Assembly (NCBI GenBank): GCA_951406725.2
Contig: OX597815.1
Location: 47,430,001-47,494,000 of the forward strand
Source: Octopus vulgaris
Lineage: Eukaryota
DNA: 64,000 bases
Reading direction: 5' to 3'
In this document: in pieces, positions 2,586-62,539 of the stretch
How positions within the stretch are numbered: position 1 is the first letter of the stretch
Layout: each line of letters begins with the position of its first letter
Program-made: the position numbers and the translations under genes
The notes under the pieces: model-generated
The model's input: the letters and a program-made list of their open reading frames with translations, nothing else
What the model was told of the DNA's origin: nothing
Database searches by the model: none

Positions 2586-2796
2586 AGTGTCTTGCTGGAT
2601 TCGTTGTAAATATATTGAACTAAATAAAATCAAGTTATCACTTTTAGAAAAACTGGGGTGATGTAAATTTCCTGTTCAGAACTATGTCACTCTCACTGAA
2701 AAACAACACAATTTACTGAATTCTTCGAGAAGAGTCCATAAAGCACATATGCAATAATGCCTTATATTATTCATGCCATTATTTTAACTGCCTGAA

Positions 2797-3197
2797 GGCG
2801 GCGAGCTGGCAGAAACATTAGCACACCGGGCGAAATGCCTAGCGGTATTTCGTCTGCATCTACTTTCTGAGTTCAAATTCCGCCGAGGTCGACTTTGCTT
2901 TCCATTCTTTCGGGGTCGATTAAATAAGTACCAGTTACGCACTGGGATCGATATAATCGACTTAATCCCTTTGTCTGTCCTTGTTTGTTCCCTCTGTGTT
3001 TAGCCCCTTGTGGGTAGTAAAGAAATTGGTATCTCGTCCGTCTTTATATTCTGAGTTCAAATCATGCCGAGGTCCACTTTGTCTTTCATCATTTTGAGGT
3101 CGATTAAATAAGTACCAGTTATGCACTGGAGTGGATGTAATCGACTTATCCCCTTTCCCAAAACTTCAGACCTTATGCCTATAGAAGAACGGATTAT
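2797..3197 (+). mobile_element. tRNA-derived SINE family B: Tx1-tail copy (2797-3026) fused to a headless ATT-tail copy
   Basis: GGCGGCGAGCTGGCAGAA head, GAGTTCAAATTCC box B, central CATTCTTTCGGGGTCGATTAAATAAGTACCAG domain, two different tails. Confidence 0.85.
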
Positions 3198-18492: not shown

Positions 18493-18835
18493 TATTTCTT
18501 TACTACCCACAAGGGGTTAAACACAGAGAGGACAAACAAGGACAGACAAACGGATTAAGTCAATTACATCGACCCCAGTGCGCAACTGGTACTTAATTTA
18601 TCGACCCCGAAAAGATGAAAGGCAAAGTTGACCTCGGCAGAATTTGAACTCAGAACGTAACGGCAGACGAAATACGGCCACGCATTTCACCCGGCGTGCT
18701 AACGTTTCTTATTTCTTTATTACCCACAAGGGGCTAAACATAGAGGGGACAAACAAGAACTCACAACGTAACTTCAGACGAAATACTGCTAAGCATTTCG
18801 CCCGACGTGCTAACGTTTCTGCCAGCTCGCCGCCT
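18493..18835 (-). mobile_element. Family-B SINE (Tx1 tail), composite with internal duplication
   Basis: 17-bp TSD TGAGTGGTTGCAATATA at 18476-18492 and 18836-18852. Confidence 0.9.
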
Positions 18836-20848: not shown

Positions 20849-20863
20849 AACGATTTCAATACT

Positions 20864-21095
20864 TATTTCTTTACTACCCACAAGGGGCTAAACACAGAGG
20901 GGACAAACAAGAACAGACAAGCGGATTAAGTCGATTACATCAACCACAGTGCGTAACTGGTACTTAATTTATCGACCCCGAAAGGATGAAAGGCAAAGTC
21001 GACCTCGGCAGAATTTGAACTCAGAACGTAACGACCGACGAAATACCGCAAAGCATTTCGCCCGGTGTGCTAACGTTTCTACCAGCTCGCCGCCT
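20864..21095 (-). mobile_element. Full-length family-B SINE (Tx1 tail)
   Basis: Complete head, body and tail. 15-bp TSD AACG(A/G)TTTCAATACT. Confidence 0.9.
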
Positions 21096-21189
21096 TATGA
21101 ACGGTTTCAATACTAGTTTACAGTTTGCTTCCCAATTTCAAATTGGAATATATTTCCTTAATTTTATAATTTTTAAGGTTATCTATACT

Positions 21190-30817: not shown

Positions 30818-31467
30818 GGCGGCGAACTGGCAAAATCGTTAGCACACCGGGCAAAGTGCTTGGCGGCCTTTTGTTCTGAGTTCAAATTCGTTCTGAGTCC
30901 AAATACCGATAAGGTCAACTTTGAATTTCATCCTTTGAGTACCAGTGATTCACTGCGGTTGATGCAATCAACCCACACATTTCAGGCCTCTCCCACACAT
31001 TTCAGGCCTTGTACCTTTAAATGAAAAGATTATTATTATTGTTATTATTATTATTATTATGGCGGTGAACTGACAGAATCGTTAGCGCGCCGGACGAAAT
31101 GCTGAGCGGTAATTCGCCCGTCACTACGTTCTAAGTTCAAATTCCGCCGACGTCGACTTTACTTTTCATCCTTTCTGGGTCGAAAAATTAAGTACCAGTG
31201 AAACACCGGAGTCGATGTAATCGATTAGTCCCCTCCTCAAAATTTCAGGCTTTGTGCCTTTAGTAGAAGGGGTTATTATTATTATAAGTCGGTGAGCTGG
31301 CAGAGTCGTTAGCATGCCGGGCGAAATGCCTAGCGGTATTTCGTCTGTCTACACGTTCTGGGTTCAAATTCCGCCGAAGTCAACTTTGCCTTACTTCCTT
31401 TCGGGGTTGATATAATCGATTTAACCTCTACCTCCAAATTTCAGGTCTTGTGCCTATGATAGGAAGG

Positions 31468-36450: not shown

Positions 36451-36681
36451 ATTTCTTTACTGACCACAAGGGGCTACACAAAGAGGAGACAAACAAGGAT
36501 TGACAAACGGATTAAGTCGATTATATCGCCCCCAGTGCGTAACTGATACTTATTTTATCGACCCCGAAAGGATGAAAGGCAAAGTCGACCCCGGCGGAAT
36601 TTGAACTCAGAATGAAGCGGAGGACGAAATACCGCTAAGTATTTCGCCCGGCGTGCTAACGTTTCTGACAGCTCGCCGCCT
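36451..36681 (-). mobile_element. Family-B SINE (Tx1 tail)
   Basis: Full head and tail, TSD TCCATTCTT. Confidence 0.9.
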
Positions 36682-37476
36682 TGCTCTCCATTCTTGCTCA
36701 AATATTATATTTATCTACCTGTTAGCTGTATATACAGACAATAAGTTCAGTATAATAGAAAAGGAAAACTGAGGAAACATTGTGATGTGAGTTAGCGGTT
36801 GTAGTGGATTGTCGAAGAAATCTGTGTTGTTCAGCTAATTTCTTTTTATATTTTATTTATTACTCGTTTTAATTTTAGAAAAAATATTAAAAAGTATTCA
36901 TGTGTGTCGCTATGGCCTCGAAAATATTACACGGTGTTCATTTGAATCGATAATGTACAAGATGAGCCGACATTGCATCGGTCTTTCACGTATGTTCTGA
37001 ACAAATGGCAGGTCTTTGTATTTCTGTTTAGGCTGTGGTATGTATGTGTATATGTAGTCACACGAAAACCATAAAATATTATTTGTATCCTCACATTTGA
37101 GAAAATTAAAGACCATTCAAATACTGGAGGATAATGTGCTAAACAGAATTTCCATGGAGTGATTTACTAAGCAATCACAGAAACATATACGTTTGATATC
37201 GGTCGAAAAGCGCTCACAGGTTATTGAGTATATGTATGCGAGGGTGTGTGTATAATAGTAAAATATTGCTTTAGTCAGTAGAAATAGGTTTTTAGTTTTC
37301 AGTAACCAAGGCCGTGGATACTTTTTAAAATATTCCACCAAAAGAAACTTTAAATACCTACAGAAACTTTAAATACCTTCTCAATTCTTTCACTTTAAAG
37401 CAGCAAATATCGTTATTTTATTGTAGATTTGGTTGTTTAATCTTTTGAAACAGAAATAGGTAAAGTCATTCTAGAT

Positions 37477-56100: not shown

Positions 56101-56378
56101 GTCCTTATCCCATGTCCTCGTACTTCGTATTTTTTGTTGTTTATGTTTTGTGACGAGCTGTGCCCACATATGCATATAATATGTATATATATATATATAT
56201 ATATGCATATATATATTATTTATAATATGATATATACACACACACACAGATATATCCATATATAGACAAACACACATATATACATATCTCTCAACTTATC
56301 TCCAACCTTGCGTACTGACTCTCACATGATTTCTCCCATAGATGTATACATACATACATGCATACATACATAAATACA

Positions 56379-56414
<36 letters not shown>

Positions 56415-56575
56415 TATGTGTGTGTGTGTGTGTGTTTAAAAGACAGAATCACTATCAAGCAATTCAATCATTATTGAACGACATTATTCACGATAGGTAC
56501 ATATAGGACTAAATATTAAAATTATCAAAATTAATACCTTAAGTTCTTATTCTAGATCATATACTTTACTTTATA

Positions 56576-56681
56576 TAGACTGCGTACGTTTCATGAAAAC
56601 ATATTCCTCGATATTGCTGAATTAGAAGGTCTCAAATACAATACCATATTAAAACAATTATATTGCCAATCTTCAGGTCTA
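56576..56681 (-). ncRNA. Hammerhead motif, mirrored copy with mutated cleavage triplet (GCA)
   Basis: TAGAC-CTGAAGA-...-GAAAC-GTAC-GCA-GTCTA on the minus strand. Confidence 0.6.
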
Positions 56682-56917
56682 GATTATATGAACTTATTTT
56701 GTTATTTATATCTTATCTAAAGACATGACAAACTAAATTATATGATTAGAAGTTGTCGGAATATTTTCTTTTTACCAGCATTTCTTTTTTCTATTCTTAT
56801 TCCACATTTTCGTTCATTATTTGCGAAAGTAAAATTATTCCGACAACTTCTAGTTAGATAATTTAGTTTGTCATATCTTTATATAGAATGTAAATAGCAA
56901 AATAAGTTCATATAATC

Positions 56918-57023
56918 TAGACCTGAAGATTGGCGATATAATCGTTTTAATATGGTATTGTATTTGAGACCTTCTAATGCAGCAATATAGAGGAATATGT
57001 TGTCATGAAACGTACGTAGTCTA
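56918..57023 (+). ncRNA. Type-I hammerhead ribozyme motif with extended stem II
   Basis: TAGAC-CTGAAGA-T-TGGCGATATA...TATGTTGTCA-T-GAAAC-GTAC-GTA-GTCTA. Predicted cut after 57018. Confidence 0.8.
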
Positions 57024-57940
57024 TATAATGTAAAGTATATGATCTAGAATAAGAATTAAAGGCATAAATTTTGATAATTTTAATATTTAGTCCTATATGT
57101 ACCTATCGTGGATAATGTCATTCAATGATGACTGAGTTGCTTGAGGGTGATTCTGTCTCTTAAACCTATCTATATATATGTATATAATACAGTGAGTAAT
57201 TCATTTTAGTACCACTAAATTGAACTTCTCTCCCCTGTGGATTCGGAAATAACTTCCCTAATTTTATTATTAAGTTTATATATATATATATATTTACATC
57301 TATGGGAGTGATCATGTGAGAGTCAGGACGCAAGGTTGGAGATAAGTAGAGGATTAGGTATATGTGTGCATGTGTGCTTGTGTGTGCATGTAAGTAAGAA
57401 TGTGTATATACACATGGGCTTCGCTATATGTATGTGCAAGTTAAAGTTGTAGGTTTATTTACCTATGTGTATGTATGTATGTATGTATGTATGCGTATAT
57501 ATGGGAATGTATGTGTGCGTATGTATATTTGAATGCATGTATGTGTGTATATAAGCATATATATATAGGTTTGTGTGAGAGAGTGTACGTGTGAGTCTGT
57601 GTGTGTGTATGTGTGTATATATTCGACCACCGCATACTAAAGGTCAGCGTAAGTGATTCACATGTTAACCAACCATGAATACAGACCAGAGATACAAGCA
57701 AATAGAAGACCAATCCTATTTATATGCCAGCTAGTACCATCTACTACCATTCATAGCAGTTCGACAAATACGCTATCAGGCAAGCACCAAAGGGCTTTCA
57801 GTTGCTACTAACCACGACGACCAGAGAAGATGACCTTGAAGTTAACAATTTTAAACTAACGGAGACAACACTCGTATATCGCACGAGGAAACGCGACTAG
57901 ATCTCATTATGCAAACAAATAGTTGCATAATGAATTATAT

Positions 57941-61463: not shown

Positions 61464-62539
61464 TATAATCAAAATATTTACAGTTCTCAGAAACAGCTGA
61501 AATTAGTAACACTATTTTCTACTGATAAAGGGACATAATTTGACCTAGCGAAATGACTATATTTGACAGATGAACACGAAAACAAAAAAATATATAAAAA
61601 ACAGTTTCCTAAAACATTTACGTCAATAGCTTTTCTATTTTCCTATTTCCACTGAATGAGAGTTGCAAAAACCTAGGCCATCATACGAATGTACTATGAA
61701 TAAATACAGACGAAAGAATATTATTAAAACTTTTTAAAAATACGACAGTTGAAGTTTTCCTCTTTCATGACAATACCTGACAATACACGTGCTTTGTGAT
61801 ATCAATGCTGATATCAACATTCGATATCACTTCTTGACTAATTTTTAGAAGAAACCATCCAAAGACATTGATATCCGCAAGATCCTGACATGAACTACAA
61901 GTTTCCACAGAAACAATGATGTTGATAAGTTCTATGTTAGAAGAAAAGAGGTGAGAATGGAATAAAGATTTGTATCAAAGCCGTTTTGCATAGAATTGTA
62001 TCTCTTAACTATTATCTGTTTAACAATGGTAGCAAACATTTTACTTGAACCAGACGATCAAAGGAGGAGAAAGCAAACGCCTACAACTTTGAGGGGAGGT
62101 GGAAGTCGATTATATCGATTGCAGTATACAACTGGTACTTTTATTATTGACTCCGAAAGGGTGAAAAGCAAGGTCGATCTCTGGGGTATTTAGACTTAAA
62201 ATATAAAGGCAAAAGAAATGCAGCTAAGCATTTTGTCCGGCGTGCTAATGCTTGTGTCAGTTTGCTATCCTTTTAAGTGAAGGAATGTTAACATGGAGTG
62301 TTGTTTCTCTTGAATTCATTAGTGTGACATCATGTCATATTTCAAAAGTAATATTTTTAAATCAAGGGCTATGAAATACCCAATGAACAAAAGAAACTGC
62401 GAAATCCCTAACTCGAACTTCAAGATGCAACCGAAAATGTCAATATATGTCAGAGGTTGGCAGAATACATAACACATTTAACTGTCCAATAATGTCATCA
62501 ACGTTGTATCCAGGCATGATAATATTGCTAAAGTAATTA

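Follow-up and report, generated by a model that had tools for sequence, protein, structure and literature searches.

Head-to-head 3' ends of a Penelope-like element, with hammerhead motifs of long helix II, in the genome of Octopus vulgaris

Introduction

A palindrome in the Octopus vulgaris genome carries a hammerhead ribozyme motif in each of its arms, on opposite strands, and one of these motifs has an unusually long stem II. The question raised by this locus is whether such an arrangement is a device, in which a ribozyme is locked by its own antisense, or a by-product of the way a mobile element inserts. The analysis of the surrounding 64,000 nucleotides (the window, whose own numbering is used throughout) and of related copies across the genome favours the second answer, to which we assign a probability of roughly 0.88: two 5'-truncated 3' ends of a Hydra-clade Penelope-like element (PLE) were joined head to head in a microsatellite, likely in one insertion event, and have decayed neutrally since; each carries a hammerhead motif, with the core intact on the right side only.

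The role of PLE hammerheads in transposition is debated, cleavage having been reported as dispensable in vitro (PMC11167929), and the truncation footprint described below offers a genome-scale approach to cutting.

Materials and Methods

The 2.8-Gb assembly was searched with the palindrome arm, which matched 485 candidate places, and 40 of these 485 were scored. Family loci were sampled by an exact 20-mer of the 3' end of the element (158 matches, 100 of them listed); 86 loci were taken and 84 aligned. Hammerhead motifs were sought genome-wide with a single pattern containing a variable insert, in size classes of 10-40, 58-88 and 89-119 nt, the reversed pattern serving as control. Mapped 5' ends numbered 112 for family A, which is that of the palindrome, and 95 for family B (83 pattern matches), 207 in total. 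The window's pair and locus L240 were left out of the family A count because they had suggested the idea.

Results

Structure of the locus

The longest inverted repeat of the window is the palindrome at 56434-57165. The initial annotation had given it as 732 bp with arms about 91% identical and without indels, and this was confirmed: the arms (56434-56767 and 56832-57165) are 334 nt each and differ by 29 mismatches (91.3% identity) and no indels, around a 64-nt spacer. The features of the locus are as follows.

56273-56359, minus strand: older, unrelated dispersed repeat, left copy, which with its partner forms an outer 87-bp inverted repeat (85%; sequence comparison)
56346-56433, no strand: left target microsatellite, (CATA)n/(TA)n/(GT)n (from sequence)
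56434-56767, minus strand: left inverted copy, 5'-truncated 3' end of a Hydra-clade PLE, without tail (91.3% to the right arm; dispersed family with the same 3' end)
56576-56681, minus strand: likely inactive hammerhead copy, C16.1 in its triplet (GCA at 56581-56583), helix II weakened (sequence and fold; GCA form rare genome-wide)
56764-56767, no strand: head-to-head junction with about 3 T of microhomology (two alignments to L003 overlap; bridged by an X3 contig)
56764-57165, plus strand: right, longer copy, 5'-truncated 3' end of the same PLE subfamily, the 64-nt spacer included (collinear with longer copies from about 56764; subfamily variants in common with the left arm)
56918-57023, plus strand: type-I hammerhead motif with intact core, predicted cut after 57018 (core match and minimum-energy fold; no Rfam match)
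57180-57266, plus strand: PLE "tail" extension, on this arm only (common to many copies; all 24 inverted pairs have a single tail)
57277-57292, no strand: right target microsatellite, (TA)n (from sequence)
57282-57368, plus strand: older, unrelated dispersed repeat, right copy (16 matches in the genome at 80-100%, counting the two in the window)

The spacer is itself element sequence and belongs to the right copy, which starts at about 56764. Microsatellite had been described on both sides; this holds on the left, but on the right the CTAT/TA run is short and opens into the 87-nt element tail, the flanking (TA)n lying near 57277. With microsatellite in both flanks, a target-site duplication is unreadable at the palindrome. 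One 222-nt contig of another public run (X3, record 27) spans the junction (56634-56855) with 8 differences, no gaps and a depth of 3.65. The 9% divergence of the arms had already been taken to speak against an assembly fold-back, and we agree; this divergence and the bridging contig together argue against such an artefact.

A six-frame look, the only search made for a host gene around the palindrome, identified none. The outer 87-bp inverted repeat (56273-56359 and 57282-57368) frames the insertion; the older dispersed repeat to which its two copies belong is microsatellite-linked and also forms inverted clusters at locus L139. Another dispersed repeat, of about 160-240 bp and probably a SINE-like element, has many copies in both orientations, in the window at 2795-3032, 18494-18719, 20859-21096, 31058-31224, 36451-36682 and 62103-62265.

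The host element

Copies of the family have one fixed 3' end, followed in most of them by TA or CTAT repeats, in keeping with the insertion of Hydra-clade elements into (TA)n, while their 5' ends vary. Longer copies contain an AT-rich UTR of about 1.1 kb and then a GIY-YIG endonuclease (EN) open reading frame (ORF) with a CxCx5C linker; this ORF is present upstream of the 3' end in L044, L052 and L055. Its Pfam GIY-YIG match has an E value of 0.001, below the curated cut-off, and it is 54% identical to an intact sister ORF of 841 aa with DKT, CxCx5C, CxxC and CxH motifs. Intact sister ORFs span 830-860 aa. DKT was read in the sister ORF L079, where the RWK motif reads IKWK, and CxCx5C, CxxC and CxH in both L079 and the palindrome's family. 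A PLE-type reverse transcriptase (RT) is present in the L079 sister family and in L337, a close subfamily copy (73-80% nucleotide identity to the palindrome's family) in which RT, EN, 3' UTR and an inverted long-stem hammerhead end are found together. An RT-bearing full-length copy of the exact palindrome subfamily was not found among the family copies, and a Pfam search of the intact sister ORF gave no RT match.

By these comparisons each arm is identified as the 3' end of a dispersed Hydra-clade PLE, the clade placement coming from motifs and not from a tree with reference elements. The origin first suggested for the palindrome, a PLE pseudo-LTR with a type-I hammerhead and palindromic stem III, is supported by the EN ORF, the shared 3' end and the motifs.

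Several other observations concern the element and its relatives. A young sister Hydra-clade family (L077-L081 and L083), probably still active, has intact or near-intact ORFs of 700-860 aa, an Asn-rich insert between RT and EN, and short-stem hammerheads. An in-frame (AAT)n/(GAT)n repeat lies within the EN region of L052, L048, L055 and L046, its length varying widely between copies. In L045, L047, L050 and L051 the family copy, its 3' end interrupted, is part of a multi-kilobase segment whose duplicates are 94-99% identical and which occurs three times on contig C31 and once at the start of C4. Directly downstream of the family copy in L056 (8324-9500) is a PLE RT of another clade, with a DKG motif.

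The two hammerhead motifs

In the right motif, stem I (56918-56922 with 57019-57023) has 5 bp, the core consists of CUGAAGA at 56923-56929 and GAAA at 57007-57010, and the GUA triplet ends at 57018. Stem III is a self-complementary 8-mer (57010-57017), with a duplex energy of -9.8 kcal/mol. The long stem II closed by U-U that had been pointed out is indeed there: the helix II insert (56930-57006) is 77 nt long, begins and ends with U, and comprises about 10 basal pairs and a 55-nt extension. The U-U closure is not peculiar to this locus, being typical of Hydra-clade hammerheads (PMC8557442 supplement). The minimum-energy fold of the 106-nt motif has the hammerhead shape, with a stability no better than that of shuffles (z -0.3); the insert folded alone gave a z of -1.9.

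The right arm has the type-I core (CUGANGA, GAAA, NUH), which the left arm lacks through C16.1. The annotation of two opposed hammerheads stands for the right one, on the plus strand with intact core and GUA, and has to be qualified for the left one, on the minus strand with GCA, which has lost U16.1 and one more helix II pair and whose minimum-energy fold is not hammerhead-like. The left copy is likely inactive, and self-cleavage is predicted for the right one. As in minimal PLE-type hammerheads, the right motif has a short helix I and a palindromic helix III, but not the helix II of 4-8 bp with a small loop. Hammerhead covariance models had been proposed as a check; an Rfam search of the motif returned no hammerhead family, either at the gathering threshold or at E 10. 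Conservation of the core among genomic copies had been named as a second point on which the ribozyme reading would turn, and it was observed: all 11 core positions are intact in 26 of 40 family copies, and core positions are less variable than others (16/440 against 328/4,873).

Hammerheads with a long helix II across the genome

The motif search returned 4,043 motifs with inserts of 10-40 nt, 1,253 of 58-88 nt and 222 of 89-119 nt; the reversed control yielded 3, 2 and 3 in these classes. A long-insert set of 57 motifs from 56 loci fell into 17 sequence clusters. Over these, the basal 12 positions of helix II form 7.7 pairs on average, against 5.1 +/- 1.8 for halves taken from different clusters, although a few clusters pair poorly at the base. 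Most long inserts fold better than shuffles. Of 32 GUA motifs, 21 have a self-complementary 4-mer in stem III, and four different sequences occur among these 4-mers. Related inserts of 39 and 68 nt have a common base, and (TA)n or (ATT)n microsatellites lie within some of the long inserts, as in L355, L359, L361 and similar loci; together these features suggest that helix II grew apically under weak constraint.

The Hydra-clade motifs of the published File S2 have about 12-26 nt between the core halves, frequently with U-U closure, and its longest entries, from Chlamys/PLE-X elements, about 50-55 nt (PMC8557442). Our literature search, in which subscription journals were thinly covered, found nothing on PLE hammerheads with a helix II insert above about 55 nt. 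The work of Luense et al. (2017) on dimeric PLE hammerheads may describe long-stem variants. Within the searched literature, the long-helix-II hammerheads look like an undescribed variant.

Truncation points around the ribozyme

If the motif folds or is cut in the element RNA, this might be visible in where the copies begin. From -2 to +20 of the predicted cut, 5' ends exceed the background in both families (A, 12 against 5.5; B, 11 against 5.5; together 23 against 11.0, P about 0.001). Inside helix II (-85 to -30, a range chosen after seeing the data) they are scarce, with 4 against 11.4 in A, 3 against 10.5 in B and 7 against 21.9 expected together (P about 2e-4). Over the whole ribozyme body they are depleted in A (5 against 20.9) but not in B (15 against 18.9), and a pile-up at the 5' edge of the motif is seen in B (13 against 6.2) and not in A (3 against 7.7). 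An apparent pile-up at +24 proved artefactual: it came from a duplication within one subfamily and disappeared when several references were used.

This pattern speaks for helix II being folded in the template or cDNA. It is also compatible with the copying of some cut RNAs, and stalling at structure explains it about as well. We regard it as an even question whether the excess just 3' of the predicted cut is due to stalling of the RT, or to cDNA ends hidden at the folded ribozyme, rather than to RNA cleavage, in which case the long-stem motifs may be poor or dead catalysts. Stalling would account for the small number of ends that lie within 2 nt of the predicted cut (6 of 207), and for a step that is sharp in family A and not in family B, in which the 5' edge of the motif gives the strongest step and the cut ranks second. 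It also agrees with published results from Anolis, in which no RNA ends map to the cut and cleavage was dispensable for insertion in vitro (PMC11167929). It fits less well with the strongest step of all tested positions in family A, at -4 to -2 from the cut, with the two family B copies that start exactly at +1, and with the low variability of the core positions.

Origin of the inverted pair

An inverted head-to-head partner was present at 24 of the 84 sampled family loci and a single arm at the other 60, with arm lengths and inner ends varying freely; both arms have the whole hammerhead motif at 3 of the 84, the window's included. Opposite pairs within 2 kb were also found for 36 of 100 short-stem hammerheads among the matches listed. 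The 87-nt tail is on exactly one arm in all 24 inverted pairs, on the longer in 15, on the shorter in 7 and on one of two about equal arms in 2, and is present in 30 of the 60 single copies. Such layouts are on record for PLEs, as "dual min-HHRs ~100-700 bp apart in opposite strands" (PMC4209133), as a 5'-truncated inverted copy with hammerheads on both strands in Penelope-13_HM of the Hydra clade (PMC8557442 supplement), and as inverted junctions for which self-priming was proposed as the origin (PMC3846280). The layout of the palindrome is an ordinary, known insertion product of PLEs, and the locus itself an ordinary dead insertion.

Both-strand nicking and priming by the element protein most likely made the pair. 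The two arms belong to a single subfamily of a dispersed element, and its longer copies code for a GIY-YIG endonuclease. Within a (TA)n/(CA)n tract the element protein would have nicked each strand and started reverse transcription from both nicks, with the tail included at one start and left out at the other; both cDNAs would then have stopped early and joined via a few T residues. Since then the arms have diverged by 9%, with no sign of homogenisation or editing. PLE protein is reported to prime and extend both strands in vitro (PMC11167929).

The second arm could instead have arisen by fold-back, the first cDNA priming itself via a few bases 64 nt from its end and copying itself outward, as the self-priming proposal for inverted PLE junctions would have it (PMC3846280). 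The local geometry suits this, with the tail on the longer arm, as in 15 of the 24 pairs, the spacer as loop and a short T microhomology. The tail on the shorter arm in 7 pairs is impossible by simple fold-back and fits priming on both strands, which is favoured for this reason. The copied arm also ends exactly at the tail-less 3' end, and at a second inverted pair, L010, the arms fall in different subfamily clades. We consider fold-back improbable.

History of the pair and the regulatory reading

In the tree, both arms of the window's pair fall in one 6-row clade (support 82/90) and have subfamily variants in common, without being exclusive sisters. Their identity of 91% compares with a mean of 92.5% over 14 pairs, the window's included. 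Among changes in the left arm only, 8 of 17 are G>A, and the right arm has one A>G; such changes give no editing signature. A bias of the arm differences towards G-U wobble was not significant (12 of 19, P = 0.36). An A-to-I editing signature was accordingly rejected, there being no A>G bias, as was selection for the hairpin, neither wobble bias nor homogenisation being found.

The initial annotation had inferred that a read-through transcript would fold into a double-stranded hairpin burying both motifs, and such a hairpin is predicted to be very stable (-454 kcal/mol); it would be a by-product, forming only on read-through of the locus. The further suggestion of a self-inhibiting switch was not supported, the layout being routine, the arms having diverged like those of other pairs and the left motif being without U16.1. 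The relevance attached to heavy A-to-I editing likewise found no echo in the arm differences. The GCA form is rare (40 motifs against 1,253 with GUA genome-wide) and scattered over many families, and so reads as decay; an amplified GCA subfamily awaiting editing was rejected on the same counts. The switch is possible in principle but unsupported.

The regulatory reading would have the locus co-opted as a hairpin holding an antisense-locked ribozyme and serving as an ADAR/Dicer substrate; at its boldest, the left GCA copy would regain activity through A-to-I editing at A15.1, since hammerheads with I15.1 cut NCH triplets (PMC8879150, citing Ludwig 1998). Beside the stability of the hairpin, the GCA triplets in both arms of the second inverted pair could be counted in its favour. 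The commonness of the layout, the ordinary arm divergence, the missing A>G and wobble biases and the scatter of GCA motifs as expected from decay all weigh against it, as do the lost helix II pair and misfolding of the left copy, and we judge it very improbable. A miniature inverted-repeat element (MITE) with 334-bp terminal repeats, or an assembly fold-back, would also give long inverted arms around a short spacer, but can be set aside almost entirely, as the arms represent 3' UTR sequence of an RT/EN element and mismatch one another at 29 positions, a contig of another run bridges their junction, and 60 of 84 loci have single arms of freely varying length rather than two terminal repeats moving together with fixed ends.

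Contigs of run X10, whose RNA origin is a guess, contain short family pieces not assignable to the palindrome locus. The second inverted pair (L010; G000:C2:49736386-49737974) lies 2.25 Mb away and has GCA in both arms. One of its arms has three rare variants within 28 nt in common with the window's left arm, yet is grouped with another subfamily; gene conversion or mixed templates are possible sources.

Discussion

The hammerhead in the element RNA is predicted to cut after GUA only as a dimer, via its palindromic stem III, or with the element protein, minimal PLE hammerheads being described as acting as dimers (PMC4209133) or with the help of protein (PMC11167929). Helix II, which in minimal hammerheads would not be kept short by loop-loop contacts, may have lengthened at its apex in many families, from 13 nt to more than 100 nt, with its basal pairs kept. 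A wider proposal can be built on this. The Hydra-clade PLEs of this genome may carry an overlooked class of hammerheads, with at least 1,475 motifs of at least 17 sequence types, a helix II of 58-119 nt and absorbed microsatellites, that still fold and cut in vivo; cut 3' fragments would have been retro-inserted, so that the cleavage site left its footprint in the genome, and two RNAs dimerised through stem III would arrive at one target together and so give head-to-head insertions. The tie of these long-stem hammerheads to an EN ORF comes from families A and B and the L337 subfamily only, and taken as a whole we hold the proposal as tentative, with the odds against it. Hammerheads with a very long helix II escape standard descriptors and Rfam, so that ribozymes are undercounted in such genomes. 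With natural lengths running from 13 to 119 nt, it can be tested how far helix II can grow without loss of catalysis.

In its DKT, CxCx5C, CxxC and CxH motifs, its (TA)n targets and its 3' hammerhead, whose helix II is closed at the base by U-U, the element resembles the EN-bearing Hydra-clade PLEs of Craig et al. 2021 (PMC8557442), and the inverted layout resembles that of Penelope-13_HM from the same work. The octopus member of the clade on record there, Hydra-1_Obim, differs in having a short and different hammerhead. The File S2 motifs of the clade are much shorter between the core halves than the 77 nt found here and the 119 nt reached in sister families, and their stem III is mostly odd-length, whereas here it is an even 8-nt palindrome. 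The 3' UTR of about 1.1 kb and the tail of about 87 nt also set the family apart from the clade as published, for which a tail of 30-40 bp is given (PMC8557442).

A short helix I, a weak palindromic helix III and predicted activity as a dimer are features in common with the minimal type-I PLE hammerheads of Cervera and De la Pena 2014 (PMC4209133), in which, however, a "larger than usual" helix II means 7-8 bp, compared to about 10 basal pairs and a 55-nt extension here. Head-to-head inverted pLTRs, a tail at one end, microhomology junctions, AT-rich targets and in vitro extension of both strands are known from PLE insertions (Arkhipova et al. 2013, PMC3846280; Frangieh et al. 2024, PMC11167929); what is added here is a count for the one-tail rule, 24 of 24 pairs. 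Whereas Frangieh et al. 2024 (PMC11167929) saw no RNA ends at the cut, 5' ends of the copies were found here at twice the background number next to the predicted one. Animal non-LTR retrozymes (bioRxiv 10.64898/2026.07.22.740005) are likewise non-coding and PLE-derived and carry a type-I hammerhead; they form head-to-tail tandems, of which none was found at the palindrome locus, whereas in the arrangement described here two truncated ends of a coding element lie in inverted orientation.
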